From positions 1-64,000 of the forward strand of contig CAVYSE010000028.1 of assembly GCA_963771075.1 (NCBI GenBank): a stretch of DNA of 64,000 bases, written 5' to 3'. This document shows, one piece after another, positions 8,638-55,012 of this stretch. The notes under the pieces were generated by a model, which was given only the letters and a program-made list of their open reading frames with translations, searched no databases and was not told where the DNA came from. Numbering within the stretch: the first letter of the stretch is position 1; each line of letters begins with the position of its first letter. This stretch comes from a candidate division FCPU426 bacterium (GTDB taxonomy: Bacteria; Oederibacteriota; Muellerivitia; Muellerivitales; Muellerivitaceae). The translations under genes and the position numbers were made by a program.

Positions 8638-8743
8638 AAGATTCTTTAATCCAAACAAATCTTGGTTTGTCTTGGGTTTATACAATGAGATAGGTTTCCT
8701 CTGTGCCTCTATTCCCCCGGGATGAATATTTTCATCTTTAAAT

Positions 8744-9586: not shown

Positions 9587-9599
9587 GGTAACGGCCCTC

Positions 9600-11687: not shown

Positions 11688-11708
11688 CGAAAACCTTTCT
11701 TGCCAGAA

Positions 11709-11837
11709 TTTACCGTAAAGACGCGGAGAAAAACCAAAAATAATAATCCCGCATTTTAGAGAATTACCTACGCGACTGGTTTAAATGTAGGTTAATTCAG
11801 ATGATTGATAAGAATCAAATGCGGTTTGCGTGGTGAA
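11709..11837. repeat. Degenerate inverted-repeat element between the GT4 paralogues
   Basis: TTTACCGTAAAGACGCGGAG ... GCGGTTTGCGTGGTGAA with an AT-rich interior. Confidence 0.45.
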
Positions 11838-11849
11838 TGGTTCGATTTT

Positions 11850-29651: not shown

Positions 29652-31594
<1,943 letters not shown>

Positions 31595-37712: not shown

Positions 37713-37742
37713 AAAAAAGGCGGCCCCAAAGGGCCGCCTTTA
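37713..37742 (-). terminator. Intrinsic terminator closing the lipoprotein/porin unit
   Basis: Minus strand AAAGGCGGCCC-TTTG-GGGCCGCCTTTTTT just after the stop at 37756. Confidence 0.85.
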
Positions 37743-37755
37743 AACAAAAGGGCCC

Positions 37756-38640
37756 TTAATAAAACTGGACGTTGTCGACCCAAAAGTCGGTGTAGGTGGA
37801 TACACCGGGGGCGCCAGGGGGGGGGCTGGGGCCGCCATTGGAGAACTGCCACAAAAGAAACAAGCCCAAATTCTCAAAGCTGGCCACAGGCTGGCCGTTC
37901 ACGCTCACAGGCTGGCCGTAGAGGATCGCGGGCGCGCTGAGGGCTTGGGTCGTGAGGCCGTCCGATCCGGTGGGAGAAAAACGGATTTTCATGCTACTGA
38001 ATGGAAGGGTCATGTGTTTCCAACCCGAAGTAGAACCCGAAGGCAGGTTGAAGTTAAAGTAGTTGTAGCAGTTGGCGCTATAGGGCGGCGGGCAGATTCC
38101 AGCCGGATCCGCCCCGGCGGGGGTATTTGCGGTAATGCCGACCTGAAACCAGCGCGCAGTATTCGTATCATCCGGGAGGATGTTGATGTCAAATTGGATG
38201 CCGGTGGGAAACTGGGAAAGGTCGTAAATATAAGGATCCGTCGGGTCGTTGGGGTTGTTCCTCAGGAAGCACCACAACTCGATGGCGGGATACTCGGTGG
38301 GGTTGGTGTCCGTTTGCTCGCCGTAAATGTGGACGGCGTATTGCCCCGTATCCGGCCGGGGCACCAATATGATGGGGTTCAAGCTGCCGTTGATCATGTT
38401 GGTATGGCCCGCGACACCGCCGGTGACCTCGCCCGTGAAATAACCGCCGGTTCCGTTCGTGAGGGCCGGGTTCACGAGCAGCGAGCCCTCGTGGAAGTTG
38501 CTGATGATGTCCACCGGCAGGGCGGGCGGGACCACGGAGGACACGGTGGGCACGGAACTCGTGCAGCCTTGGAAAAAGAAAAAAGTCATAAAGGCAAGGG
38601 CCAAGGAGCCCAAACCCCAACCCAGCCATTCTTTTTTCAT
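37756..38640 (-). CDS. Lipoprotein with CBM11/CIA30-like beta-sandwich domain (paralogue C)
   Basis: Lipobox FQGC; YDLSQFPTGIQF, C..CYNYF, W...LPFS, DFWVDNVQFY; GGAGG before MKKEW. Confidence 0.65.
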   Translation of the reverse strand: MKKEWLGWGLGSLALAFMTFFFFQGCTSSVPTVSSVVPPALPVDIISNFHEGSLLVNPALTNGTGGYFTGEVTGGVAGHTNMINGSLNPIILVPRPDTGQYAVHIYGEQTDTNPTEYPAIELWCFLRNNPNDPTDPYIYDLSQFPTGIQFDINILPDDTNTARWFQVGITANTPAGADPAGICPPPYSANCYNYFNFNLPSGSTSGWKHMTLPFSSMKIRFSPTGSDGLTTQALSAPAILYGQPVSVNGQPVASFENLGLFLLWQFSNGGPSPPPGAPGVSTYTDFWVDNVQFY

Positions 38641-38698
38641 TCCAAGCCTCCTACCGCTGAACATCGGTTCAAAGAGAGATATTTTTTTAATTCTACCG

Positions 38699-39613
38699 CT
38701 ATTTAAAGAATGAGATTTGATCCACGTAAAAATCCAAATTGGAGACGCCCGGCTTGTTGTTGCGGCTTCCGCTCCATTGGAGCCACATGATTTCCTGGAG
38801 ATTCTCGCCGCTCAGGGTGGGCGGGTTGGGGATGGCCCCGGATACCAGTTGCTTCAGGTCGCTGAAATTATACCGGAAAAATTCCCATTGGCCGCCGGTG
38901 CCCCCGGAGACGTCGGCCGCGAAATGGTCGTAGCAGAGGCTGGGTCCCGCGGTGCAGTCTCCCCCGGCCACCGGGGCGAGGGTGTGTTTAACGGGAATGG
39001 CGAAATGCCGCTGTATGGTCGTGTCGTCACTGGCGATCATCAGGTAAAACTGGACACCGGTGAAATTGCTTGCGTCAAAAAACGCCCCCCCCTCCGGGTA
39101 AGCGCAGAGGTCCAGCTCCGGGAAGGCTGCGTCGCCCTGGTCGGTGACGGGGCCGGACATGCGGTAGCCGAAGGCGTCCCCGTTCGGGCCGTTCCCTCCC
39201 AAGCCGACCAGGCCCCAGTACGTAAAGCCACAATAGGCCTTGAAATTATTCAGGACCGTCACGGTAGCGGAGGATGGACTTTTCAGGGTGTAGGAGGGGG
39301 GGTTGCCCGCGTCGAAGAGGCTGGGGTTAATGGGATAGCTATAAACAGGCTTGTTCGAAGTTTTGTAAACCACAGGGGCGTTGAAACTTGGGTTTTGAAT
39401 GAGGGAAACCGAGGGCGTGATCATGGCCAGAGTGTTGAAATCGGCCACCGAATCCCGGTTGATCTGGGAAGCCGGGGCTCCATAGGTGCCGACCACAGGA
39501 ATGGAATTTTGGCACCCAATGACCGCCAGCATCCCCATAGCGGCCAGGAAAGAAACGATCAAAACGTTTCTTTTGAAGCCCCTGGGGCTATTTCCCCTAG
39601 AATTGGATTTCAT
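38699..39613 (-). CDS. Lipoprotein with CBM11/CIA30-like domain (paralogue B)
   Basis: Lipobox VIGC; FDASNFTGVQF, C..CYDHF, W...YNFSDL, DFYVDQISFF. Confidence 0.65.
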   Translation of the reverse strand: MKSNSRGNSPRGFKRNVLIVSFLAAMGMLAVIGCQNSIPVVGTYGAPASQINRDSVADFNTLAMITPSVSLIQNPSFNAPVVYKTSNKPVYSYPINPSLFDAGNPPSYTLKSPSSATVTVLNNFKAYCGFTYWGLVGLGGNGPNGDAFGYRMSGPVTDQGDAAFPELDLCAYPEGGAFFDASNFTGVQFYLMIASDDTTIQRHFAIPVKHTLAPVAGGDCTAGPSLCYDHFAADVSGGTGGQWEFFRYNFSDLKQLVSGAIPNPPTLSGENLQEIMWLQWSGSRNNKPGVSNLDFYVDQISFFK

Positions 39614-42032
39614 AAGTCAGCTCCGCGTATTGGTTGTTGAGCGTGTTCCCGCTCGGTAAGGCCCCCACATAGGGTACCGCGTTTCCCCAGGTATAGTCAT
39701 AGTCCAAAAAAAGCCTGGAGTTGCGGTTCATGGTAAAGGTCATGGAAAGTCGCAGGCTGTCGTTGGTGCCGTTGATATTGAATATTTGGTAATTCCCCAG
39801 GTCGCTATTGTCAAAGATATAGGAATAACGGGCCATGGTGCTTCCCTGGTAGCCTGCTTCGGACCCGTTCACGCTGTCCACACTGAAGGAAAGGGCCGTA
39901 TTCCACCAGGGGAAAAGCCCCGCTTCCACGCCGCCTAAAACCCACGCGCTGGTCAAGGTGCCGATCGAGCTGTCCGTTTCCTCGTACCGGACATTGGTGC
40001 CGATCACCAGGTCTTCCGGGTCGTCGATGTAAGGCGCCAGGTTGATGGAAGGGCCCAAATTAATGTAGGTAAAGTTGCGGATGGGAACGGAAGTGACGGA
40101 AGCAGGCATATCCACCGGTACGAGCCCCGTTCCGTCCGTGGTCGCCACCAGGTTCGCCTGCATTTCCTGGACGAAATAGACCGAGCCCTTGATCTTCAGG
40201 GAGTCCTTGTCCAGCGTCTTCACGTCGATTTCCAAACCGCCGCCCTGTCGGTTGGGGGTGCCCAGGCCATAGGGGAAGGTATTGTCTTCCGTGCGGTCGT
40301 AGAATGAAAAGATGCCGCTCGCGCGGGGAACCCCCGATAGGAAGAACTGGCTCCGGAGCGGGTCGGTGTTGAATTCCGGCGTTGGCGCCGAACTGTTAAA
40401 GTTCGAGGTGGCGGTGACCAGGTCCTGGCGGGTCTGGGCGAGGGGCGAGAAGAAGTTGGGACCCACGTTCAGGAAATTGAACGAGATTTGGGAATGCTGG
40501 AATTTCAAATAGGGTCCGATCAGGAAGGCCCAGTCGGAAACGTTGTTACCGCTGTTGCGCGTATCATCTTCATATAACGAACTGGCGGTTTCCCAGGATG
40601 CGCCCAACACCATCCCGTCCCCAAGGGTCACGTCCACGGAGGGCTTGACGCTGAGGATTTCATATTGATGGGCCCAGGTTCCCACGCCATTTGGATCGTA
40701 GGGGCTGCCAGGCTGTTCGCTCTCCAAAGGCTCCCAGAGCAAAACGCCATAGGTGTCGAGGGAAAACTTCAGATTGGTGTTTCCTCCGATAAAAAGGCGC
40801 TTGGTGGCCAACTTTCCCTGCCCCGCGAATAGCCAGTCGGTGAAAAACCCGGGGCCGAAATAGGTGCCCCCGCTGGCCAGGTCGTTGAACCCGTTGCGGA
40901 TCATATCGGCCATGAGGGAAATATCGAAATGATCGAACCAGGTCGAGTCGGGCCAGGCCACCTCCGTGCCCAAGCGCAAGCCCCGGAAGGGCCAATTCGG
41001 CTCGTCGTTCAGGAAGCTTTCATACTTTAAAGTGTCGTCCTCGCGGGCCATCATTTCCGGCACCCAGCGCAGGTCCAGGTTGTCCCGGTTCCACATGGTT
41101 AAGGGAGTGTAGGATTCGTTGAAATCGCCCAAGGTCGCCGTAAACCAGGGAGTCTTAAGTTCCATGGTTCCCCGGCGCGGATAGAAGCTGTCGATCGCCT
41201 GGGAATCGTTCGCCACCATGGCGGTTCCATAGCGAACCATCAGTTCCCACCGGACCTGCTTGCTGACGACACCCTCGGGCTCAAAGTCGATATAGCCCCT
41301 TCCTTGGGAGTTGTCCTCGGGTGAAACGGTGGCTCCCGTCGTGGTCAGGGAAAGCCGTTGAACCGCGCCGAAGACCCGGCCCAAACCGTGCCAGGCGATG
41401 GTGGGGTACTCAGTGATCCCCTTGATTCTCTTCAAAAGGTCATATTGGGCGTTTTCCAGGTCTTGCGTCTTGTCCGCCAGGCCCTTCACCGGAGTCTGGA
41501 TATCCTTTAACTCATATTGATAAGCGTCTTCCAGGCTGTTCAAGGTCGCTGCGATCTTGGACCACTTGAGGGGGTCTTCCGGGGTCGCGGTGGGGGTGAC
41601 GGCGGCCGGAACGGCGGCTTGTGCTACGGGGGGAATTTCGGGCACGGATGAATCGGCCGGGCTTACGGGCGCTGGAGCCGGGGATGCGGGCACCGCCGCT
41701 ACGGGGGGGGCCGAGGACGAAGTGGAGGGAAGGCTGGGTTCCCCCAGATCGGGCGGGAGAGGTATCTCGTCAGCCTGGGCCACCACGATCTCACGGTATT
41801 GGTCGCGGGCCTTCGCCACCCGCTGGGCCACCTCAAAACGGGTCAAGGGGCCTTGGGAGTCGCCGGGGGAAAGCAAGCCGGCTTTTTCCAACTGGCCTAG
41901 TTGCAGGTAGGTCATGTCATTGGAAGGCACCACGGAAAAGATCCCTTCCGAGGCAAAAGCGGCGGCCAAACCCACCCCCCCGAAGAGGGCCAAGGCCAGG
42001 GCCAAACGCCCGGGATTAATAATGGGCTTCAT
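39597..42032 (-). CDS. SLH-like/coiled-coil/beta-barrel outer-membrane protein 3
   Basis: Signal peptide; FSVVPSND.TY.QL.QL.KAGLL..LTRFEVA (SLH-like); Pro-rich linker; coiled coil; amphipathic strands; ends LTYEIQF. Confidence 0.72.
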   Translation of the reverse strand: MKPIINPGRLALALALFGGVGLAAAFASEGIFSVVPSNDMTYLQLGQLEKAGLLSPGDSQGPLTRFEVAQRVAKARDQYREIVVAQADEIPLPPDLGEPSLPSTSSSAPPVAAVPASPAPAPVSPADSSVPEIPPVAQAAVPAAVTPTATPEDPLKWSKIAATLNSLEDAYQYELKDIQTPVKGLADKTQDLENAQYDLLKRIKGITEYPTIAWHGLGRVFGAVQRLSLTTTGATVSPEDNSQGRGYIDFEPEGVVSKQVRWELMVRYGTAMVANDSQAIDSFYPRRGTMELKTPWFTATLGDFNESYTPLTMWNRDNLDLRWVPEMMAREDDTLKYESFLNDEPNWPFRGLRLGTEVAWPDSTWFDHFDISLMADMIRNGFNDLASGGTYFGPGFFTDWLFAGQGKLATKRLFIGGNTNLKFSLDTYGVLLWEPLESEQPGSPYDPNGVGTWAHQYEILSVKPSVDVTLGDGMVLGASWETASSLYEDDTRNSGNNVSDWAFLIGPYLKFQHSQISFNFLNVGPNFFSPLAQTRQDLVTATSNFNSSAPTPEFNTDPLRSQFFLSGVPRASGIFSFYDRTEDNTFPYGLGTPNRQGGGLEIDVKTLDKDSLKIKGSVYFVQEMQANLVATTDGTGLVPVDMPASVTSVPIRNFTYINLGPSINLAPYIDDPEDLVIGTNVRYEETDSSIGTLTSAWVLGGVEAGLFPWWNTALSFSVDSVNGSEAGYQGSTMARYSYIFDNSDLGNYQIFNINGTNDSLRLSMTFTMNRNSRLFLDYDYTWGNAVPYVGALPSGNTLNNQYAELTYEIQF

Positions 42033-44310
42033 AGGTGAATCTCCAAATCTCGTCATTACGCGCGTAGGCGGCATTGTCGGCCCAAGTGTAATTGGTGAGG
42101 AAACAATCGGCCCGGATGTTAATCACGTTGCTCAAGGGATATTTCACCCCGAAGGCCCAGGTTTGCCGGGTCATGTTCATGGGCTGGTACACGAATTGGC
42201 CGCTTTGATTCAAGACGGGATCGATGTAAAAAACGTACTGGCCCAAAGTGGGCGGGTTGCCGTCCTGGTTGAGGACATATTCGCTTCCGGTGCTTTGGGT
42301 CTGCTCAAAAGCCGCCGACCAGACGGTGGTCCCGAACAATTTGAGGGGAATGTTGAAATCCGCCGCGGTAATGATGGTATTGGAAGTGAAGGGGGGATCG
42401 CCCATCCCCAGGTTCGTGGTCTGGTTCTTGTAATCCACCTGGAGGTCGTAGGTCTTTCCGCTCAGGCCCGCCAGCTTGGCGAAATGGAACGTCAGGGCCC
42501 CTTCCCCGCCCCCGAAGGTCCGGGCCATCGCGGTATTGCTTTGGCTGTCCACCGGGAGGAGTCCCGTGCCCGAGGTATTGAGGACTAGGTTCGGCTGGAG
42601 TTCATGCGCACTCATGACCACCGAGGCCTGGGGTTGGAGCCAGCCCTTTTCCCCCACCGCACCGGAAAGGCCCAGAAGGAATACCTGCCGGTTGGGCGTG
42701 GCATCCCCGTAAGGCAGCATGTTTTCCGCCGTGCGGTCATAGGGAGCGAAATAGGGCCGGTTCACGCCCTGGAAAGGGCTTTGGTTCAACAGCCCGGGGG
42801 CCGCGTCATCCAGGCCGGTCAGGTTGTTCGTCATATAGCCCTGGGCCGATTGGTCGGGGGAATAGCGGTTGGTTTGGGCCCCCGGCGAGTAGAAATAGGG
42901 ACCCACGTTCAGGTATTTGGTCGAGAGCTTGAGCCCGTAAACCTCCAGGCCCCCTTCCACGGACAAGGCCCAATCCTGGAAGACCGCCGCCGAATTGGTG
43001 GCGTCGTCGTTGTACTGGCTGAAGGCGCTCTCAAAACCAGCCGTCAATTTGATCTTTTCATCGAAGGGCACCGAGGCTTTCGACCAGACGCTTCCCACCT
43101 CATAGCTCTTGGCGTAATTGTCCGGGTAACCGGGAATATAGGGAACTTGGCCGCTGGCCGAATCCTGCCAAAGAAGAAGGCCCGTCAAACCCACCACCAG
43201 GTTTTGCTGCAGGAAGCCCAGGGAACCCTGCCCCCCCGCGAAGTAATTCCCGAAAGTGAGGGCGCCGATGTTGTCGCCCGGGTCCTGTTCCACCCCGACC
43301 ATGGACTCCAAATGGTAACTGCTCAGGTCCCAATTTTTACCCCAAGTCTCACCCACCGAGCCCTGGAAACCGCGCATTTTCCAATCATTGCCATGGTCCA
43401 AATAAAGCAGGTCCTCCGCATCATTGCGGGTCCGCTGGAGGGAGGTTGGGTCCACGAAAGTGTAAACGGGCGCGTTGAAATTCCATAAGGTGAAGGGCGT
43501 GTAGCTCTTGTAGAAATCACCTCCCTGGAATGTGGCGGCGCCGCTATAGCCGGAAAGGCTGATCCAGCGCAACTGATAGGGGGGCTGGATGGGGTCCTGG
43601 TAATACATGCCGATGGAGCGCCAAAAGCGGAAACTCACGTTGAAGAGAACGTCGGGAACGGGCACGCTCCGCAGGTCCAAATTCATGAAAATGGCCGCGT
43701 TGTAATCCATGGAAGGATAGGGCGAGTCCCCGAAGCCCCGGTAGAGGTACATATAACCGCGCGACTCCCCGCCGACCTCGGTGCCGGAGCGGGTCAAGTA
43801 TTTTTTCTGGAGGGCGGAAAAAAGTTCGTCGCGGGTCTGGGCGTCCACCAGGCGTTGTTCCAGCCGGTCCACCTGGATCCCCATGGCCGTCAATTCTGAG
43901 GCGAATTCATCGACCAATTGCTCGAAGCTCCGGGCCGGAACAACCTGGGCGGGAGAAGCGGCGGTGCTCCCTACCGGCGCCGGGGGCGATGAAAGGGTCG
44001 GCTCAGGGAGAGTGGGTATGCCCGTGTCGGGAACGGGAAGAAGGCCGGCATCGGCCTGGGCCAGCACCATTTGGGAAGCCTGGGCAGTCAGCTGGGCCAC
44101 TTCCAGGTTGGACATTTGCTCGACGTCCTTGTTGGGGTCGGGGACGAGACCCGATAGGATCAGGTCGTTCACCGCTAGATTGATCCAGGAGTCGCGGTCA
44201 TTCGTCGCCAACCGGCCATGGTCGGCCAGGGCGGGCAGGGCCAGGCCCAGCCAAAGGGCCAGGAAGGGGGTTAGCTTTTTCACCATCGCGTTAAGTTTCA
44301 AAGGTTCCAT
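42016..44310 (-). CDS. SLH-like/coiled-coil/beta-barrel outer-membrane protein 2
   Basis: SW..LAV.DL..SGLV..MSNLEVA; EQLVDEFASELTAMGIQVDRLEQR (OmpM/cyanobacterial-porin-like stalk); ends FTYEAHY. Confidence 0.72.
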   Translation of the reverse strand: MEPLKLNAMVKKLTPFLALWLGLALPALADHGRLATNDRDSWINLAVNDLILSGLVPDPNKDVEQMSNLEVAQLTAQASQMVLAQADAGLLPVPDTGIPTLPEPTLSSPPAPVGSTAASPAQVVPARSFEQLVDEFASELTAMGIQVDRLEQRLVDAQTRDELFSALQKKYLTRSGTEVGGESRGYMYLYRGFGDSPYPSMDYNAAIFMNLDLRSVPVPDVLFNVSFRFWRSIGMYYQDPIQPPYQLRWISLSGYSGAATFQGGDFYKSYTPFTLWNFNAPVYTFVDPTSLQRTRNDAEDLLYLDHGNDWKMRGFQGSVGETWGKNWDLSSYHLESMVGVEQDPGDNIGALTFGNYFAGGQGSLGFLQQNLVVGLTGLLLWQDSASGQVPYIPGYPDNYAKSYEVGSVWSKASVPFDEKIKLTAGFESAFSQYNDDATNSAAVFQDWALSVEGGLEVYGLKLSTKYLNVGPYFYSPGAQTNRYSPDQSAQGYMTNNLTGLDDAAPGLLNQSPFQGVNRPYFAPYDRTAENMLPYGDATPNRQVFLLGLSGAVGEKGWLQPQASVVMSAHELQPNLVLNTSGTGLLPVDSQSNTAMARTFGGGEGALTFHFAKLAGLSGKTYDLQVDYKNQTTNLGMGDPPFTSNTIITAADFNIPLKLFGTTVWSAAFEQTQSTGSEYVLNQDGNPPTLGQYVFYIDPVLNQSGQFVYQPMNMTRQTWAFGVKYPLSNVINIRADCFLTNYTWADNAAYARNDEIWRFTYEAHY

Positions 44311-44315
44311 TTCCG

Positions 44316-47036
44316 TTAAAACAAGAATTTAATTTTGCTGAAAAACTGGTCGCCCGAATAGTTGTTCACCGGCACATAGGCGTCGGCAAAGTCGATATGC
44401 TTATAACGGAACTCCAGCTTCCCGCCGCCCCAGGGGATATCCCAGCCCAACCCTAAGCCGTACTCGTTGGTCTGGTAATTCACTTGCGGATAGGTGTAAT
44501 TGGAGGTCCAGGTTTCCACGCCCCTATCCACCATCAGGTCCAGGTTCTTGATGATATTGACCATGAGCGCGCCGCTGAAAACCTGTTGGGTGAAAAGGTT
44601 GGGGAAACTGCCTCCGGCCAACGAGGGGGCGTTGGAGGTGGGTGAGCCCGGGGATGGCGCGGTCCCGTTGGCCGCCGCGTTGGGATTCAGGAAATCGGTG
44701 GCCGCGGCCGATGCCGCGGAAACCTGGTTATCCGTCATGTAAAAGGAAAGATCCACCGGAAGGGGCGTGTGCAGCCAATCCCCTGCTTTGATCTTGGTGG
44801 TGAGCGTGATGTAGTTGTAGCTCTTCAGGCCCTGGATATTGGCGTACTCGTTGAAACCCTTGGATAACCCGCTCGTGTAGGTGGCCGGGGCCTGGCCTGT
44901 GGCGCCGGGGGTGAGGCTTAAGTTACCGCCATTGTTGTAAATAGGCAGGATCAGGGGGAGGCGCTCGGAGGTCATCCGGAACTGATACCTTACGTCGTCG
45001 TTGATGATATCCCCGTCGTTGCGCATGGCTTCTATATTATTGATGTAGTCCTGGCGCACCGGGTTCACGTTGGGGGAATAGTTGCCCCACATGTCCAGGC
45101 CCCAAAGCCCCTCGTCGTCGGGATAATAAAAACTCAGGAACTGGGTGGGTTCGACGGTGTTGTACCCTTCCGGGTCCTGCTCGGAGACGTACTCGTTCTT
45201 TTGGGAGATGTCGAAATTGACCACGATGGAGTCCAGGAAGGAGGGCCATTTCTTCATGAAATCCTGCTTGCGCCCGCTCCAGCCGAAATTGAAGCGCCAG
45301 CCGTAACGGTCGGTCTGCAGGTTGTCCACTTCCCCGACGGCGCCGTAAACGTCCTGGAAATCCGAGGGGTTGAAGGAAAGGCCGTAGTGGAAGAAGTTCA
45401 GGCCGCTCATGGTGACCTTGCTTTGGAAATCGGAATAGGCGTCGCCGATGGCGAACCCGTAAACAGTGAATGGATAGAAGGCCACCGAGCCTTGGCCCGC
45501 GCCCGACTCGATGGGGCTGGAATCGAGCACGGTGTTGCCGGTGTTCAGGAATTCCGGCCCCTGGATCTGAGTGCCGGTATAGAAATGGGAGAAGGCCCCA
45601 TCCAGGCCGATCTGCAGCTTGTTCAGGTTGAAAAAGATGTCCGCCTCATAATCTTTCATGTCCAGCTGGGGCGTAAGGGGCTGAACCATGCCTAAATTGT
45701 CGTTCACCCATTCCGCCGAGAAGGCGGTTCGGATCAGGTTATTGGCCCAGGGCTCCTCGATCTTGAGGCCTTCTTCCCAGCGCTGGGTCTGGAAGGGGGT
45801 TTCCCCCATGCGACCCACGATGAACCACATGCGACCGCCTTGGGCCATCCAGGGCAGGTCGTGCCCCACCGCGTACATGCCGTCGAACACACGGTCGCTG
45901 GCGGATTGCACGTTCCCGGCGGACGCCGCGTAGGCGGGGATGTAGCTGACCTGGGACATGTAATCGTCCCAGTTTTTGCCGTTCTTGTCATCGTTGAAAT
46001 TCTTGATGTCGAAGGGATCCTCAAAGCGCTTGATGGAGTTGTTGGCGTAGCCCCGGCTGAAATTTCCGAAGGTCGTGTCGGGCTGGTAGCATTCCACCGC
46101 GAAGGTGGTGTCCCATTTGCCCAGCCCGCCGTAAAGGTGGAAGGTCGCGCTGGGGTTACCGAGGTAAATGGAGGCGGGGGCGGTTCCCACGCCCGCCACC
46201 TGGTACTTTCCCGAGAAGTTGTCGAAGGGCAGGATCATCCCGAAACCGGTGGAGACGGTCCCCAGGCCTCCCATGTCGGTGTACATTCCGACCCAGGCCT
46301 CCTGGAGGATCTTCGTGGCGCTTTCCTGGGCGATGCCGGTCAGGTTCAAGTTCTCGAAGCGTACGTTGGTGTTGGTGTTGAAGTTGGGGATCCCGACGGA
46401 CTTGTTGGCCTTTTTCCAAACCGAATCCACGTCATCCTGGACCTTCTTGAGACTTTCCAGTTCGGCCTGGCGGTCCTTCAACCTTTCGTCCTCCTGGGCC
46501 AGGCGGGTCTTGAGGATCTGGGTGGAGTCGCCGAGTTGTTTCAGGAGTCTCTCGATTTCCGTTTTGGCGGACGGCGGATAATTGGGTGCCAGGGTCGGAA
46601 CCGGGACGGGTGTGTTCTCCGGGGGGGCGAGGGGAGCCATGGTCGGGACGGGAACCGCCTCCGGCACCAAGGGTTCCGGAATGGCGGGAGGGGCGACTTC
46701 CGGGACGGATGGGATGCTCACGGGTGCCGTGGGCAGGGTCACCGGGACAGGGGTGGGTACGGGCGTGGGTGCGATTCCCAGGGTGGGTGCCTCAATACGG
46801 GCTTTGGCCTTCTCGGTATAAAAAGCCAATTCCATTCGGGTCACGACCTTGCCCTGGTCCAAAACCTGCTGGTCGTCCGGGTCCAATAGTCCGTAGGTTT
46901 CCAGGTGCTTCACCTGCTGGTAAAGGGGCGCGTCGGAAGTGACTTCCTCGTAGGGGTTGGCCTGTAAGGGGCTCGCGGTAAAGATACCCAGCAAACCCGC
47001 CAGCGCCATCAAAAGGATTAAAAATTTAAGTTTCAA
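44316..47036 (-). CDS. SLH-like/coiled-coil/beta-barrel outer-membrane protein 1
   Basis: ANPYEEV....LYQQVKHL..YGLL...VTRMELA; Pro-rich linker; coiled coil; ends SKIKFLF. Confidence 0.72.
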   Translation of the reverse strand: MKLKFLILLMALAGLLGIFTASPLQANPYEEVTSDAPLYQQVKHLETYGLLDPDDQQVLDQGKVVTRMELAFYTEKAKARIEAPTLGIAPTPVPTPVPVTLPTAPVSIPSVPEVAPPAIPEPLVPEAVPVPTMAPLAPPENTPVPVPTLAPNYPPSAKTEIERLLKQLGDSTQILKTRLAQEDERLKDRQAELESLKKVQDDVDSVWKKANKSVGIPNFNTNTNVRFENLNLTGIAQESATKILQEAWVGMYTDMGGLGTVSTGFGMILPFDNFSGKYQVAGVGTAPASIYLGNPSATFHLYGGLGKWDTTFAVECYQPDTTFGNFSRGYANNSIKRFEDPFDIKNFNDDKNGKNWDDYMSQVSYIPAYAASAGNVQSASDRVFDGMYAVGHDLPWMAQGGRMWFIVGRMGETPFQTQRWEEGLKIEEPWANNLIRTAFSAEWVNDNLGMVQPLTPQLDMKDYEADIFFNLNKLQIGLDGAFSHFYTGTQIQGPEFLNTGNTVLDSSPIESGAGQGSVAFYPFTVYGFAIGDAYSDFQSKVTMSGLNFFHYGLSFNPSDFQDVYGAVGEVDNLQTDRYGWRFNFGWSGRKQDFMKKWPSFLDSIVVNFDISQKNEYVSEQDPEGYNTVEPTQFLSFYYPDDEGLWGLDMWGNYSPNVNPVRQDYINNIEAMRNDGDIINDDVRYQFRMTSERLPLILPIYNNGGNLSLTPGATGQAPATYTSGLSKGFNEYANIQGLKSYNYITLTTKIKAGDWLHTPLPVDLSFYMTDNQVSAASAAATDFLNPNAAANGTAPSPGSPTSNAPSLAGGSFPNLFTQQVFSGALMVNIIKNLDLMVDRGVETWTSNYTYPQVNYQTNEYGLGLGWDIPWGGGKLEFRYKHIDFADAYVPVNNYSGDQFFSKIKFLF

Positions 47037-47084
47037 AACAAGTCCCTTGAATTCATAGGTATTGAAAAATCCGTCTCCCAGGCT

Positions 47085-47855
47085 TTAAAAAAACTCGATG
47101 TCATCCACCCAATAATCGATGTTATAAGTCCCGGCGTTGTTGTCTCCGCCGTGATCCCACTTGACATAAACGAATTCATTGAGATGGTCCACCAAATCCG
47201 GAGGAACCACGGGGGAACCCCACCCAGGCTCCCGAGGCAGTTCGGTGAATTTATAGGAACAAAACTTCCAGTCGGTCGTAGGGGCCATATAGGCGCCGAA
47301 ATGGTTGTAACAATCGGTCGCGCAGGTCCCTCCGTCCTGCGGGGGCAGGGTGGGCGAGGTTCCGATGGCAAAACGCCGCTTGATGGCCTGGTCGTCCTCG
47401 GGGCACTTGTAATAAAACTGGATTCCGGAAAAGGCGCTGGCGTCATAAAAACCGCCCGACTTGAACTGTCCCTGCAGGGTGAAGGAGGGATAGGACCGGT
47501 CTCCCTTGTCCGTCAGGCTTCCGGTCACGTGGGCGCAAAAGGGCAATCCGTTGGGCCCGCCCTTGTCGATAAAAACAGGGTTCGGAGTGTTCCCCGCGAA
47601 TGAAAAAACCATAAAAGAACCAGTGGCGCCGCCGTAAAGTTTGGAGTTGATCGCCTTGTTGCCGCCCTCGAAATTGCAGATGATTTTTTGTTCGGCGGGA
47701 ACGATGACTTTCGGCTTACTTAAATCGGGATTGACCAATCCGTCCCGCAGGGAGGACATCTTGGAACCAGGATTGATGAAGACTGCGCCACAGCCGGCGA
47801 GGACGAACAGGAGGAAAAGCCCCAGGCACCAAGCGTAAAATTTCGGGGAAAACAT
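47085..47855 (-). CDS. Lipoprotein with CBM11/CIA30-like domain (paralogue A)
   Basis: Lipobox LAGC; NFEGG, YDASAFSGIQF, C...CYNHF, PGWG, DYWVDDIEFF. Confidence 0.68.
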   Translation of the reverse strand: MFSPKFYAWCLGLFLLFVLAGCGAVFINPGSKMSSLRDGLVNPDLSKPKVIVPAEQKIICNFEGGNKAINSKLYGGATGSFMVFSFAGNTPNPVFIDKGGPNGLPFCAHVTGSLTDKGDRSYPSFTLQGQFKSGGFYDASAFSGIQFYYKCPEDDQAIKRRFAIGTSPTLPPQDGGTCATDCYNHFGAYMAPTTDWKFCSYKFTELPREPGWGSPVVPPDLVDHLNEFVYVKWDHGGDNNAGTYNIDYWVDDIEFF

Positions 47856-48016
47856 AGCGACCTCATCCGGGGGATAACAGAGCCAAAGCCCGTGTATTTT
47901 ACTAAAAGGTGGGAAGGGACGTTAGTTTTTTTTCAAGGAACCATCATGTAAATTTTTTAACCCTATGGATAGCCGCCGGTAGAGGGGGAGATCAATCCCT
48001 AGCACTGGGGAGTTGA

Positions 48017-48195: not shown

Positions 48196-51100
48196 TCAGG
48201 GCTTCGGTTTCCGAGCCGGGGAGGTTCCCGTGACTCCCTTCACATAGGCGAAGTCAAAGGCGTGCACCGAGTCATCCGGGGTCTCCACCAGGATAGCCGC
48301 CATGGTCTGGCTGTCCCGCTCGGGCTGCGCCTCCTTGGGCAGGTTCACGAACATGCTCTTCACCCGAACCACCATGCCGGGGGAAACATCCAGGGGACCC
48401 ACCGTCGAAAGCACGTTGTAATAGTCCTTCGTGGTGTCCAATTGCCTCAAGATCAAACCCTTGATGGTATTGGCGGTCGGGTTATGGATATCCACCGTCA
48501 AGGGTACTTCTGCGCCCAAAGACGCTTCCTTGGGCGCGGTCAGGCTCACCTCCACCGGCAGCAGTCCCTCCTCCTGGCGCAGGGTCGTGAAGGCCTTCCC
48601 GCCCGAGATCGCCCATTCCATCCGGGAATAGGGGCCCCGGACGCCCCAGATCAGGCGGTAAAGGTCATGCCAGAACATGCCCAGGTTGGCGTTCAAGCCG
48701 TACCAAAGGTTGAATGTTTCTACTTCCCGGTTATAGAGTTCCTCCGGCGCGGGAGGATCCAGGCTTTTCTGCACCATGTTAAAATCAACTTCCTCGCCCG
48801 GAACGTACATGCCCCCTTCCCGGGAAAGGTACCCCGGCCAATGCCGTTTCATGTCCTCGATGGTGCTGCGATCCCCCTCATAAAGCATGATGTGGTTGAA
48901 GTTGATCCCGGCGTCCACCAGCATGGCCGGGTCTTGCCCGTGTTGGTGCCCCATTTCCCAACCCAGGGTGAAGGTAAAAACGGGCTTCGTCATTTTTGCC
49001 TGGTCCAGGACATTTTTCAGCACCATCGCCACCTTGTGCGCCCGCCACCACTCGAAAAGGGCTACCACCTGCGGATCCGTATTTCGTTCCACGGTATGGG
49101 CCAACCAATGGATGCGGTCGGGCTCGGCCATCGTGTCGAAACCCTCGGGCAGGTTCATGTTCAGGTCCTTCACGAACTCATCCACCAGCTCATAACCCGC
49201 AAAACCGGTACGGACGTAATCCAGCCCCACGAAATCCACGTTGGAGTCTTTGTTCATGGTCTGGAGGAAATCCAGGATGTCCTGCTGGCGTTTCGGGTCG
49301 TCGAGGGAAATGAACCGGGTCTGGATTACCTGATCCGTGCTCAAGTCATAGCCGAGGGAGAATTGATAAGGGGCCTGGTGCCATCCGTCCCCCTCGACCT
49401 TGAAGGTGGTCATGTAGGCTGCGTACTTTATCCCCGCCGCGTGGGCGGCCTGGGCGTACTTGCGCCCGTTCTCCATTTCCTCCCGGTTGAAGGGAAAATC
49501 CTGGGGATAAAATCTTTCCCAAATGGAGGTATCCCCCACCAGGTTGCAAAAAACGTTAGCGCCCATGAATTTCGTCCAATCGATGGCGTGGGCCGGGCTC
49601 ATGGTGCCGCTGGCGTCCAGCGATGGAATGGCCCCGCGGATCAACTGTTTGCCCCCCTCCATGGTCAGGACCGCGTAACCCGGATCCAGGCCGGAAGGCC
49701 TCAGGGGCGGGATGGTGAAGGCCGATTGAAAGACCCTCGGGTTGGAACGATCCGGGTCCACCAGGACCAATTGGGCCAGGTAGGTGCCCGGCCGGGGGTT
49801 AAACGGAACGGGCCAATTGCCCGAGAATTTCCGGCCTTCCGCTTCTTTTCTTAATTCCACCCTCGTATGGCCGTCCACCAGGGTGACCGGTTTCCCGTTC
49901 ATGAGAACTTCCACATAGGCGTGGCTGTTCACGAAACGCCTATAGTTCATGGAGCTGACTTTCAACTCAAAGGGCACCATCTCATACCTTAAAAAGCTGC
50001 CCTTGGGCATGAGGGCCACCACATCGGGGATTTCCAGGGAGAGGGTCTTGAGAGGAATGGTTTGCTGACTCGCCAAGGAGGTCAGGGTGGCCTTGGCCAG
50101 GAAGGCCAACACCAAAAAACCGAACAGGACCCCTAGGAAACCCCAGGCCCGGCGGGAAGAATTCTGTTGAAGAACCCAAGCTTCCTTTAATTTTTCCAGG
50201 CCGGACCCTATCCCGGCGAAGATCGAACGGGAAGTGGAAATAACCGGGCTTGGATCCTCGGCCGTGAAAAGGGGGTCTACGGAAACGGAAGAAGGCGTGG
50301 CAGGCTCACGGTTAGAAATGGGCTCGGCGGCCTGATCGATCCCCATCGACCCTTCCAAGATCATCCGTTGGAGTCTTTCCTCGGAAATGAATCTTTCGGT
50401 TTCAGTCGCGGACGGCGGAGACGCCTCCAATGGATTGGTTTTCCCCGATTTTTCCGCTAAAGAGGGCGCTTCGGATAGGTTCTCAATGACGGTCTCCTCG
50501 TCATGGATCGCGTTTTCCAGGGCCTCCCCAATGGTCGTGAATTTCATCCGGTCCTCTTCGGACATCTCCTCAAGGACGGTCCCTCTTGTCAGGGCTTCGG
50601 TTTCCAAGGGGCCAGGTTCCTCATTGCGAGCTTTATCCTCGGTTGACAAGTTTTGGAGGGCAGGTCCGGCCATGAGAGGTGAAGGCATCTCCTGGGGCAA
50701 TTCATCCTCCGGAAGGGAACCCCACAAAAAACGCCGAATGGCTTCTTCCCGCTCCGCCGGATTGGCGGAAGCACGCGTGATGTTAGCTGGATCGGCCGCC
50801 TTTTTAGCCGCTGCTTTGGCTCGCGCCCAGTTTCGATAGGCCTGTTGAGCCCCTCCCCATAATTGCATTGCTTGGTTTTGCTTCCCCCGGACCCAAACCC
50901 AAGCCGAAGACGCTGTTCCCAGGGCGGAGGAAACTCCCCTCCCCAAGAGTCTCACGGTGTTCAGGAGGATTGAATCTCCCGGTTTTTGGACTTCCTCCCG
51001 TGGGAGTCGGAAAGGCTCCAACGCTTGGCGAATGGTGGCGTCGACGGTCGACTCCCGGGGGATAACCCGGTTGAGGCGGACCACCGTCTCCACGTGATAG

Positions 51101-52497
51101 GTCTGGGGAAACATGTCGAGGGGCTGGGCCCAATCCACCGCGTAACCATGCTTGACCAGCAGGGATAGGTCCCTCGCCAGGGTGGAGGGATCGCAAGAGA
51201 CGTAGACGATGCGTTGGGGCTGAAGGGCCCCTATCCGAGCGAGCACTTCGGGCAAAACCCCTTTCCGGGGAGGGTCCACGATGACCGCGTCCACCTGGTT
51301 GAGGCCCTTTTCCCTCAAACCCAAAAGGACCTGGGCCACATCCCCTTCCAAGAAATCGATGTTGTCTTTTCCGTTGAGCGTCAGGTTGGCCTTGGCGTCC
51401 TCTACCGCGGGTCCTACTTCCTCGATCCCCACCACGTATTCGCATTCGTTGGCAACTCCCAGGGCCAGGGTGCCGATCCCGCTGTAAAGATCAAGCGTCG
51501 TGGGCCATTTTCCCCCGTTCTCGGGGCCTCCCAGGGCTTCCCGCACCACCGAGTGCAGCAGGTCGGCTTGGGCTGTGTTCACCTGGAGGAAGGATTGGAG
51601 CGAGACCTTCAAGCGGAGCTGGTCGATCTCCTCAAAATAATGGTCCCGTCCGGCGAGCACCTTGGTCTGCGATCCAAAAACGATGTTGGTGCGGGATGGG
51701 TTGATGTTTTGCAAAACCCCCACCAGGGAGGGGACCTCCGCCATCAATTCCCGGGCCAAGCGGGGCAGGATGTCTTCCAGGGATTCGGCCGATACGCCCG
51801 TCGCCTGAACCCTTTCCTCGGGAATCTCCGAGCGCGTTACCAGGGCCAGCAGGATCTCGCCGGTCATTTCGCCCCGGCGTACCGCCAGGTGCCGGAGGAA
51901 TCCCGAGTGCTTTTTTTCCTGGTAGGGCGTCAGGCCCGACCGGTCGATCTTGCGCAGTACCTGCTGGATAAGCTCGTTGATCCCGTCCGCCTGGATGGGG
52001 CAATTCTGGTAAGGCACCAGCTTATGGGACCGGGGCTCGTAAATGCCCGCCACGAAGTGCCCGTCCCTCATGGAAAGGACCGGCATGGCCTTGTTGCGGT
52101 AATGGTAGGGAGAGGGGGAGGGGAGGCAGGGCTGAACGTTGATATTCGGCATCTTGCCGATACGCTCCAAGGCGTCCACCAGGAATTGGCGTTTGGCCTG
52201 GAGCTGGAGGGGATATTGGAAGTGCTGCCAATGGCAGCCGCCGCATTCCTCAAAAATGGGACAAGGCGGCTCTACCCGATCGGTGGACCGGCGGAGAATT
52301 CCGGTGATTTTTCCGACGGCGAAATGGTCCTTGACCTGGGTAACCTGGACGGTCACCTTCTCTCCCGGCAGGCCCCCGGGCACGAAAATAGCGAAATCCT
52401 GGTACCGGCCCACCGAATCACCGCCGAAGGCCAGGGTGGTGATCTCCAACTCGATCTTGTCGCCAAATCGGACAGGTTTAACGGCTTTGGTTTTCAT
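48196..52497 (-). CDS. rlmD: 23S rRNA m5U methyltransferase RlmD fused to an acidic linker, a TM helix and a periplasmic TIM-barrel/Ig-like region
   Basis: TRAM N-terminus, CPIFEECGGC, SFLQVN, DLYSGIG, DPPRKG, YVSCDPSTLARD, DMFPQTYHVE in the first ~475 aa; then ~950 aa more in frame, including a TM at about 50092-50150. Confidence 0.85.
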   Translation of the reverse strand: MKTKAVKPVRFGDKIELEITTLAFGGDSVGRYQDFAIFVPGGLPGEKVTVQVTQVKDHFAVGKITGILRRSTDRVEPPCPIFEECGGCHWQHFQYPLQLQAKRQFLVDALERIGKMPNINVQPCLPSPSPYHYRNKAMPVLSMRDGHFVAGIYEPRSHKLVPYQNCPIQADGINELIQQVLRKIDRSGLTPYQEKKHSGFLRHLAVRRGEMTGEILLALVTRSEIPEERVQATGVSAESLEDILPRLARELMAEVPSLVGVLQNINPSRTNIVFGSQTKVLAGRDHYFEEIDQLRLKVSLQSFLQVNTAQADLLHSVVREALGGPENGGKWPTTLDLYSGIGTLALGVANECEYVVGIEEVGPAVEDAKANLTLNGKDNIDFLEGDVAQVLLGLREKGLNQVDAVIVDPPRKGVLPEVLARIGALQPQRIVYVSCDPSTLARDLSLLVKHGYAVDWAQPLDMFPQTYHVETVVRLNRVIPRESTVDATIRQALEPFRLPREEVQKPGDSILLNTVRLLGRGVSSALGTASSAWVWVRGKQNQAMQLWGGAQQAYRNWARAKAAAKKAADPANITRASANPAEREEAIRRFLWGSLPEDELPQEMPSPLMAGPALQNLSTEDKARNEEPGPLETEALTRGTVLEEMSEEDRMKFTTIGEALENAIHDEETVIENLSEAPSLAEKSGKTNPLEASPPSATETERFISEERLQRMILEGSMGIDQAAEPISNREPATPSSVSVDPLFTAEDPSPVISTSRSIFAGIGSGLEKLKEAWVLQQNSSRRAWGFLGVLFGFLVLAFLAKATLTSLASQQTIPLKTLSLEIPDVVALMPKGSFLRYEMVPFELKVSSMNYRRFVNSHAYVEVLMNGKPVTLVDGHTRVELRKEAEGRKFSGNWPVPFNPRPGTYLAQLVLVDPDRSNPRVFQSAFTIPPLRPSGLDPGYAVLTMEGGKQLIRGAIPSLDASGTMSPAHAIDWTKFMGANVFCNLVGDTSIWERFYPQDFPFNREEMENGRKYAQAAHAAGIKYAAYMTTFKVEGDGWHQAPYQFSLGYDLSTDQVIQTRFISLDDPKRQQDILDFLQTMNKDSNVDFVGLDYVRTGFAGYELVDEFVKDLNMNLPEGFDTMAEPDRIHWLAHTVERNTDPQVVALFEWWRAHKVAMVLKNVLDQAKMTKPVFTFTLGWEMGHQHGQDPAMLVDAGINFNHIMLYEGDRSTIEDMKRHWPGYLSREGGMYVPGEEVDFNMVQKSLDPPAPEELYNREVETFNLWYGLNANLGMFWHDLYRLIWGVRGPYSRMEWAISGGKAFTTLRQEEGLLPVEVSLTAPKEASLGAEVPLTVDIHNPTANTIKGLILRQLDTTKDYYNVLSTVGPLDVSPGMVVRVKSMFVNLPKEAQPERDSQTMAAILVETPDDSVHAFDFAYVKGVTGTSPARKPKP

Positions 52498-52682
52498 TCT
52501 TGCCTTTAACGATCAGGGTCCCACCTGGGGACTGTCTTCTTGAAAATTCCCTTTTGAAGCGGTTGCATTTTAAAGTATTTTTGCGCCAAAACGTATCCCA
52601 ACCTGGGATTGCGAAGGATATACTTTCCCCGCCGCGGTTTGGGAAACCGTTCAACGGGGCTGATCGGGAGGGGAGATTGGCA

Positions 52683-54146
52683 ATGAAAAGGCTTTCTTGG
52701 GCGTTGGGATTATGGATCCTATTCATGGGGTCCGGCCGCCTCTGGCCCTCCGAGACAAGGGTCGATTCCACCGGCGGCTTGACGACCATCCTGACGGATG
52801 AAACCACCGACTTGAGCTTCATTATGGACGGAAACCCCGCGGGGCTCCTCCTATTGGACACCCATGACCGGTTGGACGAGGCCTTTCAATGGGGCCAGCA
52901 AAATACCCAGCCCTCCGGGCCGGGTTCCTACCAACAAACCTACGGTTCGATTCCCCGCCTTTTGGGGGACAATGACCTCCATTATTCGGGTTGGATGGCT
53001 TTCCCTTCAAAGGGTGTCGCTTTCCAGGCGGGAGGGGACTTCCTGTCCCAATCGGGCCAGACCACCGGTGTGGCCGATACCTTTACCCTCGGCCAATACC
53101 GGGGCTTGATCCGCGGCGCGGCGAGCCTGGGCCCCCTGGTCCTCGGCTTGGAAGTACGGAATATGGAATCGAACAACGCCTATGACCCGGGGCTCTATTC
53201 GGACAAAACCCTCCCCTATAGCCTCCAGAACGGCTCCAGCGCCCTGAACCAAACCTACCTTCGCGCGGGACTCGCCACCACCTTTCCCGAAAACCAGGGA
53301 CCGGATGACGCCTATTGGCAGGCGGGTGGACTCTTCGAGGCCCAGGTCGCGGGCGGTAATATCGCTTTCAACGCCAATCTCGATTACCCGGGCGGAAACA
53401 CCTTCGCCCTGCGGCAGAACAACAGCTATACCGATTACTATTACTTCGGCCCCGAGCTGAGGTATGTCATTCCCCATCACGCCATTTTCCGTTTCAGTTA
53501 TTTCCTGACCTATGACGACACCAATTTCGAACGGACGGTCTCGGCCACCTCCCCCGATTACGCCAACCTGAACGCCTATCACTCCACCCAATATCAATCC
53601 ATGAACGCCAGCGGGGCCTTCCGGTTGATCTTCCCCACCTCGGGACGGGAAAACCTGAAAATTGGCGGCTTCATTTCCTCCTTCTTCAACAACACGGATG
53701 ATTTGAGTACCGTCGAAAACGTCTATACCAACACGAACCGCCAGCAAATCCAAACGAACCTGGGGGTAGGCCTGGAAACGATCCATGATTACGCCTTTGG
53801 AATCCAATTTGAGAGCCAGACCTACACACTGGATAACACCTCCATCGCTTCCGCGGCCACCACGGCCCAAAGCGACTACAATTATTACCAATTCGCCCTA
53901 GGCGGGGAGAAATGGCTGGACGATCATCTCGCTTTCCGGCTGGGCTTGTCGGGGGAGGATGACGAATATTTCCAGGCCTCCAACCTAGAAAACCTCGTCG
54001 CTTTGTTGAACGCCGGGTTGGGCTGGGAGGACACGACTTGGGCCTGCGACCTGAGGCTTTGGGTGGGGGAGCAAACCAACCTTCAGGATTCCTCGAACCA
54101 GGGGAATTTGGGCGGCTTCGAGGTCTCAGGGACCGTCTTTCTTTAA
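52683..54146 (+). CDS. Outer-membrane beta-barrel protein (FadL/PorV-like N-terminus)
   Basis: GGAG before MKRLSWALGLW; RVDSTGG...D....NPAGL; alternating strands; ends SGTVFL. Confidence 0.6.
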   Translation: MKRLSWALGLWILFMGSGRLWPSETRVDSTGGLTTILTDETTDLSFIMDGNPAGLLLLDTHDRLDEAFQWGQQNTQPSGPGSYQQTYGSIPRLLGDNDLHYSGWMAFPSKGVAFQAGGDFLSQSGQTTGVADTFTLGQYRGLIRGAASLGPLVLGLEVRNMESNNAYDPGLYSDKTLPYSLQNGSSALNQTYLRAGLATTFPENQGPDDAYWQAGGLFEAQVAGGNIAFNANLDYPGGNTFALRQNNSYTDYYYFGPELRYVIPHHAIFRFSYFLTYDDTNFERTVSATSPDYANLNAYHSTQYQSMNASGAFRLIFPTSGRENLKIGGFISSFFNNTDDLSTVENVYTNTNRQQIQTNLGVGLETIHDYAFGIQFESQTYTLDNTSIASAATTAQSDYNYYQFALGGEKWLDDHLAFRLGLSGEDDEYFQASNLENLVALLNAGLGWEDTTWACDLRLWVGEQTNLQDSSNQGNLGGFEVSGTVFL

Positions 54147-54223: not shown

Positions 54224-55012
54224 TTATTTTTTCTTGGACGCCGGGGCCAGTTCCCCTTCCAACCGCAGGTAATCCAGGTAAACAACCGGGGGCTTGGTCC
54301 AGCCGTCGGTATTCACCCAGAATTGGATCGACCTCATGTTGGCCAGGTCCATGCGCTCCGCCGTCAAGTCGGTAAAGGTCACCGCGAGATTGGCGACCTT
54401 TTTGGGCGTCAGCACACCCCAGGTCTCATGGATGAAGGATTTGGAGTCGGCGACCCTCATGTGCCAGGTCACGGGTTGGTCCTGCGGGTTGAAGGCGTCC
54501 AGGTTCAGGGTGCTGTATTCGGACCAATCGTAGACCCTCAATTGGGTCGGCGACTCGGTGTCCAGGGTCAGGGTGGGCTGCCAGCCGGAGGGAGGGGGTG
54601 GGGCCGCTGGCACGCTCACGACGACCGGGGTCGGGCTGCCCTTGGCCTTGAGGATAGGCGTGGGCACCACCTTCACCTTCGGGTTGGGGGTAGGGGTGGG
54701 CGGCATGGGGGTGGCCGTGGGGGGAGCGTTGGGTCCCAGGGTCGGGGTTGGATAAAACTGCGATTGAAGCATAAAAGTCGCCATGGCGGATCGCTTGCCG
54801 TGGGTCTGGTTGTCGGTCGAGGTTTCCAATTTCACGTAACCGCCGCTGGCCCAATCCAGGTCCATGGAGGGGTCCTCAAAGTCGTTGATGACCAGGATCC
54901 GCTTGGTCTCTTTTTTCTTGGAAAAACCCTTGGTCAGGCCCAGGCCCTGGGCGACGACATAAATCAGTCCCAGAACCAGGACCAGGATCAGGAATTGCAG
55001 GAAAAGTCTCAT
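54224..55012 (-). CDS. Membrane-anchored protein with a galactose-binding-like (CBM) domain and an internal Pro-rich insertion
   Basis: N-terminal TM; INDFE, THGKRSA, YDWSEYSTL.LDAFNP, DLANMRSIQF, VYLDYLRL. Confidence 0.6.
   Translation of the reverse strand: MRLFLQFLILVLVLGLIYVVAQGLGLTKGFSKKKETKRILVINDFEDPSMDLDWASGGYVKLETSTDNQTHGKRSAMATFMLQSQFYPTPTLGPNAPPTATPMPPTPTPNPKVKVVPTPILKAKGSPTPVVVSVPAAPPPPSGWQPTLTLDTESPTQLRVYDWSEYSTLNLDAFNPQDQPVTWHMRVADSKSFIHETWGVLTPKKVANLAVTFTDLTAERMDLANMRSIQFWVNTDGWTKPPVVYLDYLRLEGELAPASKKK

Follow-up and report, generated by a model that had tools for sequence, protein, structure and literature searches.

The window analysed here, by which we mean the whole 64,000-nucleotide stretch of DNA, carries a cassette of six ORFs, all on the minus strand, in the order LipA-OMP1-OMP2-OMP3-LipB-LipC and with a terminator-like hairpin at its end. 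Its features are:

47876..47889, minus strand: AT-rich motif TTTTAGTAAAATAC upstream of LipA, a possible promoter element
47085..47855, minus strand: LipA, 256-aa lipoprotein (Cys22) with a CBM11/CIA30-like galactose-binding-domain-like module
44316..47036, minus strand: OMP1 (A-type), 906 aa, with signal peptide, OmpM-like SLH stalk, Pro-rich insert, coil and predicted barrel
42016..44310, minus strand: OMP2 (B-type), 764 aa, stalk with the SLH Trp and without the Arg, predicted barrel
39597..42032, minus strand: OMP3 (B'-type), 811 aa from the overlap start, stalk with Tyr and Arg and without Trp, a duplicate of OMP2
38699..39613, minus strand: LipB, 304-aa lipoprotein (Cys34), CBM11-like, its start overlapping the OMP3 stop by 17 nt
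37756..38664, minus strand: LipC, 302-aa (or 293-aa) lipoprotein, CBM11-like, lipobox Cys25 in the 293-aa form
37716..37741, minus strand: intrinsic-terminator-like stem-loop with 11 pairs, 8 of them G-C, and a T run

The preliminary description of this DNA had placed six co-directional genes here, with overlapping junctions at 42016-42032 and 39597-39613 and a terminator at the end, and all of this is borne out: both overlaps measure 17 nt and the stem at 37716-37741 is the longest among the 13 hairpin sites listed, a total that lies below the shuffle mean of 16.5. The signal-peptide-like N-termini, lipobox cysteines, Pro-rich linkers and aromatic C-termini which it had noted are likewise present, as is the motif shared by the three lipoproteins. 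In both overlaps the start is an ATG within the TAT-GAA (Tyr-Glu) codons of the preceding barrel's C-terminal motif, and an ATG occupies the -17 position after 44 of 58 OMP2, 43 of 47 OMP3 and 1 of 51 OMP1 ORFs. The candidate promoter element TTTTAGTAAAATAC has 8-mers present in 13-15 of the 23 upstream regions of core copies (see below) and could possibly serve LipA. A palindrome upstream of the window's LipA was discarded as an operator, its pattern being missing from the 22 other core copies. None of the six cassette proteins has a Pfam match at E<=0.01 or any NCBIfam match.

Between OMP2 and OMP3 paralogy is clear (E about 1e-30); OMP1 shows no BLAST or phmmer similarity to either, and its paralogy is seen only in profile-to-profile comparison (P=98%), so that the three paralogous barrels of the initial reading stand by direct search for two members and only at the profile level for the third. 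The regions following the stalks span about 590-690 aa, a crude strand scan finds 18-21 amphipathic strands per OMP (shuffled OMP2 columns average 11.7 and reach 18), and the C-terminal residue is aromatic in 151 of 152 aligned rows (56/56, 49/49 and 46/47). The Atlas neighbours of OMP2 are barrels, the closest cluster being commonest in Ca. Goldiibacteriota, and named relatives carry labels including Ca. Firestonebacteria and Goldiibacteriota. From the aromatic C-termini, the strands, these neighbours and the model and localisation published for the Cytophaga homologs discussed below, we infer that the C-terminal regions are beta-barrels. Profile searches gave no significant match between them and the OmpM1 barrel, and in the PDB neither the stalkless A-type and B-type profiles nor the d2 profile had a credible match. 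Covariation computed on 254 B-type sequences was set aside as gap-driven, parallel stripes being as strong as antiparallel ones, and the names of 20 distant OMP1 relatives were uninformative.

The stalk of Veillonella-type OmpM1 (V. parvula, 8BYS) is matched by the profiles of OMP1 (E=9e-8), OMP2 (E=5e-11) and OMP3 (E=8e-6). In the present proteins the stalk is interrupted by a Pro-rich stretch of 14-222 aa, and the length of the coil into the first predicted strand is fixed for each subunit (46/47 OMP1, 50/50 OMP2 and 44/46 OMP3). The SLH-like motif first described is thus sustained by homology to OmpM1 but scores below the Pfam SLH cut-off: PF00395 has no match at its gathering cut-off anywhere in the genome.

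A profile of the lipoproteins matches the C-terminal two thirds of CBM11 from endoglucanase H (1V0A, 2LRO; E=7e-4 to 8e-4), and among 92 lipoprotein relatives 6 match CBM_11 (E<=0.05), 5 CIA30, 2 CBM30 and 2 SGBP_B_XBD. The window's own LipA, LipB and LipC have no Pfam match, CBM11 (PF03425) included, and a single-sequence PDB search with LipA returned nothing; their likeness to CBM11 is seen with the profile. They are likely to be sugar-binding, CBM11-like proteins. Their number differs among cassette copies while the barrel triplet is constant, LipC being the most variable member and missing from many accessory copies. In the ESM Atlas the nearest unnamed clusters to LipA (score 0.96) are commonest in Myxococcota.

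An OMP2 (B-type) match occurs in all 30 genomes of the family and in the sole other genome of the order. Among the 53 best-ranked copies of the OMP2 match list in the order, the arrangement OMP1-OMP2-OMP3 is kept in 51, both exceptions lying at contig ends; a LipA-type gene lies directly upstream of OMP1 in 44, and a lipoprotein follows the triplet in 47. Conservation of a cassette of three barrels and three lipoproteins, on which the first reading had depended, therefore applies to the triplet but not to the variable number of lipoproteins. The copies fall into a core set of 27, including the window's, which adjoin an rlmD fusion or lepA (a housekeeping locus), and an accessory set of 26. The cassette's expected co-occurrence with glycosidases is found in the latter, 20 of which have GH, CE, CBM11, SBP or galK neighbours (GH44, GH2, GH31, GH29, CE/CBM11 proteins, SBP_bac_1/8 and galactokinase, also GH30, GH67 and GH5), but not in the core set, where glycan gene clusters adjoin none of the 27 copies; 16 queries found no glycosidase closer than 10 kb to the window's copy. 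At least three glycan neighbours are seen at 2% of random places versus 3 and 4 at two accessory copies, a comparison that is partly circular because its queries were drawn from the accessory loci themselves. The OMP2 and OMP3 subtrees largely mirror one another, from which the cassette appears to duplicate as one unit. Core and accessory copies share the same parts, and the accessory copy L060 nests among the core ones.

The rlmD fusion beside the window's copy (48196-52497, minus strand) encodes a 1433-aa protein with TIGR00479 over cut-off at aa 24-470, followed by a low-complexity linker, a likely membrane helix and a conserved domain of ~600 aa that has no Pfam or PDB match; relatives occur in 25 loci, the full-length ones being 1240-1541 aa. 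Further on lie genes for a 548-aa possible outer-membrane barrel (52500-54146, plus strand) and a 262-aa CBM-like protein (54224-55012, minus strand), both with no Pfam match and both recurring upstream of the rlmD fusion in relatives, and a LacI regulator (55688-56716, minus strand). Elsewhere in the window, a 968-aa secreted protein with no Pfam match (16296-19202, minus strand), whose relatives look like accessory-cassette neighbours, and a GH5 (19462-21057, minus strand) share Thr/Pro linkers and a similar C-terminal domain, which we take to resemble a secretion-sorting domain. Two tandem DUF1207 proteins and two tandem GT4 glycosyltransferases are encoded at 7783-9619 and 10536-13004 (both minus strand).

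The genome (4.39 Mb, 96.7% complete) contains 9 TonB-dependent receptor, 4 TonB, 4 ExbD and 5 OmpA-C matches, and SusD was not found in it. The reported lack of TonB-dependent receptor, SusD and TonB/ExbBD genes is thus true of the window, but the genome does have matches to TonB-dependent receptors, TonB and ExbD. Two further cassette copies, on contigs C24 and C26, are both frameshifted, one of them near a G7 run, and dnaK is split into two overlapping frames in the window (29652-31582, minus strand), which suggests that the frameshifts may be assembly errors. A codon-bias ranking was uninformative, with dnaK and lepA low and AT-rich genes on top.

In the loci inspected from other classes of the phylum the stalked barrels form a pair of one A-type and one B-type, after which mostly come CBM9-/CBM11-like proteins, with GH9, GH8, GH62, GH44, GH116 or BNR-repeat proteins nearby. 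A stalkless version is found in 48 loci, 47 of them labelled Bacteroidota, as an A-B pair, which at most of these loci precedes a lipoprotein and which lies near GH3, GH2/GH5-like, GH16, GH18 or CBM30/CBM9 proteins, an NrtR or a two-component regulator; some Bacteroidota loci also include sugar transporters. The A gene adjoins B in 52 of 56 distant loci, the misses lying at contig starts. OMP2 aligns with the stalkless B-type profile at P=100% over 520 columns and OMP1 with the A-type profile at P=98% over 404, and in one family centred on Cytophagaceae 38 of 41 genomes have a match to the lipoprotein profile of the stalkless loci. None of 33 large neighbours scanned at the Bacteroidota loci matched TBDT or SusD at E<=1e-15. 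Within the phylum, 56 of the 66 genomes that have a B-type match carry GH9, versus 6 of the 33 that have none (weaker matches being counted uninspected and related genomes not being independent); the 10 of 66 with a barrel match that lack GH9 count against an uptake function.

Several individual loci deserve mention. The Cytophagales genome G102 has 8 B-type matches in A-B cassettes (L139, L182-L188) beside GH3, GH18, GH16, GH10/CE2, alpha-1,3-glucanase and GH97, and in one of these, L187, the A-type barrel has an N-terminal CBM_4_9 fused to it. Lone genes for CHU_1278-type lipoproteins, with no barrel pair in 18 kb, occur at L178:8925-9932 and L181:8756-9778. At L149:5803-10026 the A-B pair adjoins genes that by inspection look like polysaccharide synthesis ones (glycosyltransferases and a sugar dehydrogenase) instead of glycosidases, and this pair possibly has a role other than uptake.

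One stalkless locus connects the family to an experimentally studied system. In L175 (genome G106) a 375-aa ORF has 10 of 10 published CHU_1279 residues, with an A-type barrel, a B-type barrel and a lipoprotein encoded upstream and a GH9 downstream, which together reproduce the chu_1276-1280 arrangement of Cytophaga hutchinsonii. The barrel in the CHU_1276 position matches the A-type profile (E=5e-130), and that in the CHU_1277 position is matched by the OMP2 profile, built from this phylum only (E=1.6e-48; blastp 2e-7), and by OMP3 (E=6e-21). The OMP1 profile alone gives no match to the CHU_1276-position protein at E<=0.01, the link running solely via the intermediate A-type profile; the window's lipoproteins resemble the CHU_1278-type lipoprotein weakly (P=53%), and the lipoprotein profile does not match the protein with the CHU_1279 fingerprint. 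According to the published account (PMC12016534), the chu_1276-1280 cluster is cellulose-induced and essential for cellulose use; CHU_1276, CHU_1277 and CHU_1279 are outer-membrane proteins required for this, CHU_1279 binds cellulose, and SusC/D homologs are described as not involved. The same study traced the cluster to C. aurantiaca and S. myxococcoides only and reports that chu_1276 and chu_1279 mutants grow poorly on low glucose; transport through CHU_1276/CHU_1277 is unproven there.

A cross-lineage profile additionally matches P0417, source-named F. succinogenes (E=8e-45), which scores 82.6 bits on the OMP2 profile versus a shuffle maximum of 5.7. In the Fibrobacter-like set of 26 metagenome loci (55-100% identity) the arrangement A-B-B' is seen in 22, contig ends truncating the remaining four; the OMP1 profile matches the A-type protein of these loci directly (E 1e-8 to 1e-11), and the neighbours include CBM30 (17 loci), GH5 (14), GH18 (14) and GH9 (13). 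A quick tree, computed with no bootstrap, recovers the two Fibrobacter B genes, FibA and FibB, as sisters (SH-aLRT 99) apart from OMP2 and OMP3 (SH-aLRT 96-98), indicating that B was duplicated twice independently, once in this order and once in the Fibrobacter-like contigs. Two separate duplications of B, with no duplicated A in these loci, fit with a 1A:2B trimer. Literature listings, which did not cover subscription journals, showed no paper that ties these barrels to Fibrobacter or Goldbacteria, or that reports a heterotrimer or a form with a stalk.

The SLH-like residues are distributed unevenly over the three stalks. In solved SLH trimers, three different repeats are described as contributing the Gly, the Trp and the Arg of a groove (PMC6081394). 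Here the Trp is conserved in OMP2 only (45/50), which has Asn at the Arg position (50/50), and Arg/Lys is conserved only in OMP1 (47/47) and OMP3 (46/46), both of which also conserve a Tyr equivalent to OmpM1 Y36; SLH-Gly29 is missing from all three. In a set of 11 pair-type B subunits, 6 have Trp, Tyr and Arg together, which suggests that the motif was shared out among the subunits after the B duplication. With Trp and Arg on different subunits, no homotrimer could carry both.

Wall anchoring, also part of the first interpretation, would run through the OmpM1-type stalk, but its canonical SLH form is doubtful, Gly29 being missing and no CsaB lying over cut-off in the genome (TIGR03609 19.6 bits versus a cut-off of 213). 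A PS_pyruv_trans match considered as CsaB was rejected; it lies within an LPS cluster and does not pass the CsaB model. The stalk Tyr recalls the polyamine-peptidoglycan binding mode described in Negativicutes (PMC10628300). As to the host, PMC12057145 groups Ca. Firestonebacteria/Goldiibacteriota-type lineages with PVC, and PVC is placed in Gracilicutes by another study (10.1101/2021.05.31.446380), which reports OmpM as absent from them; the host lineage likely lies on the Gracilicutes side. The stalked form bears on this claim that Gracilicutes have no OmpM-type tethers, since the published survey demanded a Pfam SLH hit, which these proteins fail.

Based on these observations we propose that the cassette mediates SusC/SusD-independent glycan import via one stalked OMP1:OMP2:OMP3 heterotrimer fed by the lipoproteins, a reading that we hold to be moderately probable. 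The three OMPs would assemble as one 1A:2B trimer (A-B-B in the pair lineages, A-B-B' in this order and the Fibrobacter-like contigs) tethered to the cell wall through the shared OmpM-type stalk. The CBM-like lipoproteins would gather oligosaccharides, dock and feed the barrels, whence these sugars would cross to glycosidases and ABC binding proteins in the periplasm. The window's copy would be constitutive, probably combining beta-glucan/cellodextrin uptake with an envelope tether, and those on C24 and C26 would work for xyloglucan/beta-glucan and glucuronoxylan-type loci. The 1A:2B stoichiometry is suggested by the pair-versus-triplet distribution and the split SLH residues; for the heterotrimer, at first raised as a possibility, these residues and the two B duplications offer indirect support. 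Glycan uptake distinct from Sus is well supported by the chu_1276-1280 homology, the glycosidase neighbours in three lineages and the CBM11-like matches. Its novelty needs narrowing: the Cytophaga form is already published, so the cassette is not wholly new, and it is rather a new stalked, three-subunit version of the chu_1276-type atypical PUL. Membership in one family with the C. hutchinsonii cellulose proteins and the Fibrobacter-like triplet makes it a likely import gate for plant-fibre sugars.

We regard it as unlikely that the window's copy serves chiefly as a structural tether of the OmpM kind and as a general porin, with the lipoproteins as periplasmic accessory subunits and only the accessory copies handling glycans. 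Such a role would suit the stalk homology to OmpM1, the B-type match in every family genome and the placement of 27 copies between the rlmD fusion and lepA with no glycan clusters, as it would the genome's lack of any Pal match over cut-off, the failure to find LolA in it and the lipoprotein bound to the coil of Deinococcus SlpA (PMC9388160). However, the stalkless Bacteroidota and Fibrobacter homologs retain the barrel pair or triplet beside glycosidases, the core and accessory copies have the same parts with L060 nesting among the former, 33 of 99 phylum genomes have no B-type match, and the five OmpA-C matches furnish alternative tethers.

Less probable still is that the barrels are a surface scaffold or an export/assembly platform placing CBM lipoproteins and endoglucanases on the substrate. 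The fusion of CBM_4_9 to the A-type barrel of L187 would agree with this, as would the findings in the C. hutchinsonii study (PMC12016534) that the bacterium depends more on having CHU_1279 at all than on the protein's ability to bind, and its authors' suggestion of a larger complex; yet in that study the chu_1279 mutant adheres and retains about 75% of cellulase activity, while both it and the chu_1276 mutant show poor growth on low glucose, and ABC binding proteins are frequent in accessory loci and sugar transporters present in some Bacteroidota ones. That the barrels are separate monomers or homotrimers, possibly plug-gated and TonB-ExbBD-driven, each with a lipoprotein lid as in SusCD, is very improbable: the window's three barrels with three lipoproteins, the TBDT hits retrieved by the CHU_1276 model (PMC12016534) and the four TonB and four ExbD matches speak for it, but the OMPs have no match to PF00593 or any other Pfam family, the stalk leads directly into the first predicted strand with no N-terminal plug, lipoprotein count varies against a fixed barrel triplet, and the SLH Trp and Arg would never meet in one homotrimer.

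The heterotrimeric import reading touches on a wider question. The means by which crystalline cellulose is used by C. hutchinsonii and F. succinogenes, with no cellulosomes or free cellulases, are presented as an open matter in PMC3079729, which notes a proposal of chain uptake across the outer membrane and says that the two have few cellulases in common; the Goldbacteria-like group is reported to be cellulolytic with many CBM11 copies (PMC7031533). The barrel family joins these three lineages and provides one concrete candidate common to Cytophaga and F. succinogenes that is testable in two harmless, culturable organisms; in the Fibrobacter-like loci it stands as a conserved triplet beside GH9, GH5 and CBM30. 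With somewhat less than even confidence, we suggest that a 1A:2B heterotrimeric barrel family is the long-sought SusC/SusD-free glycan channel of contact-dependent cellulose degraders (Cytophaga, Fibrobacter and Goldbacteria-like bacteria) and of marine beta-glucan users, which here would be fused to an OmpM-type stalk with a groove completed across three subunits, yielding an OmpM-like tether on the Gracilicutes side. Neither Pfam nor NCBIfam has a model for the family, so these loci, many from marine Flavobacteriales MAGs among them, would escape PUL predictors that rely on susC/susD.

Among known systems the closest is chu_1276-1280, with homologous A-type and then B-type barrels, CBM-like lipoprotein genes downstream and no SusC/SusD. 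The present cassette differs in its phylum, in having three barrels instead of two, in the OmpM-type SLH/coiled-coil stalk on each barrel, absent from the Cytophaga proteins, in its single-domain CBM11-like lipoproteins, one of which lies upstream, and, for the window's copy, in having no in-cluster glycosidase. With OmpM1 (8BYS, 8BYM, 8BZ2; PMC10628300) and SlpA of Deinococcus radiodurans (PMC9388160), as described in those reports, the OMPs share the succession of signal peptide, SLH-like helices, coiled coil and C-terminal predicted barrel; unlike OmpM they have barrel regions with no sequence match to it, a Pro-rich stalk insert and three unlike putative subunits in place of a homotrimer, and they fall outside the published definition of OmpM (Witwinowski et al., Pfam SLH). 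Whereas the CBM11 of Clostridium thermocellum endoglucanase H is part of an enzyme, the window's modules are lipid-anchored and free-standing, with an added Cys pair. Finally, the cassette likely does the same job as the SusC/SusD PULs, with a barrel and glycan-binding lipoproteins multiplied beside varied glycosidase sets, but it does so with no TBDT or SusD homology and with a fixed barrel pair or triplet.
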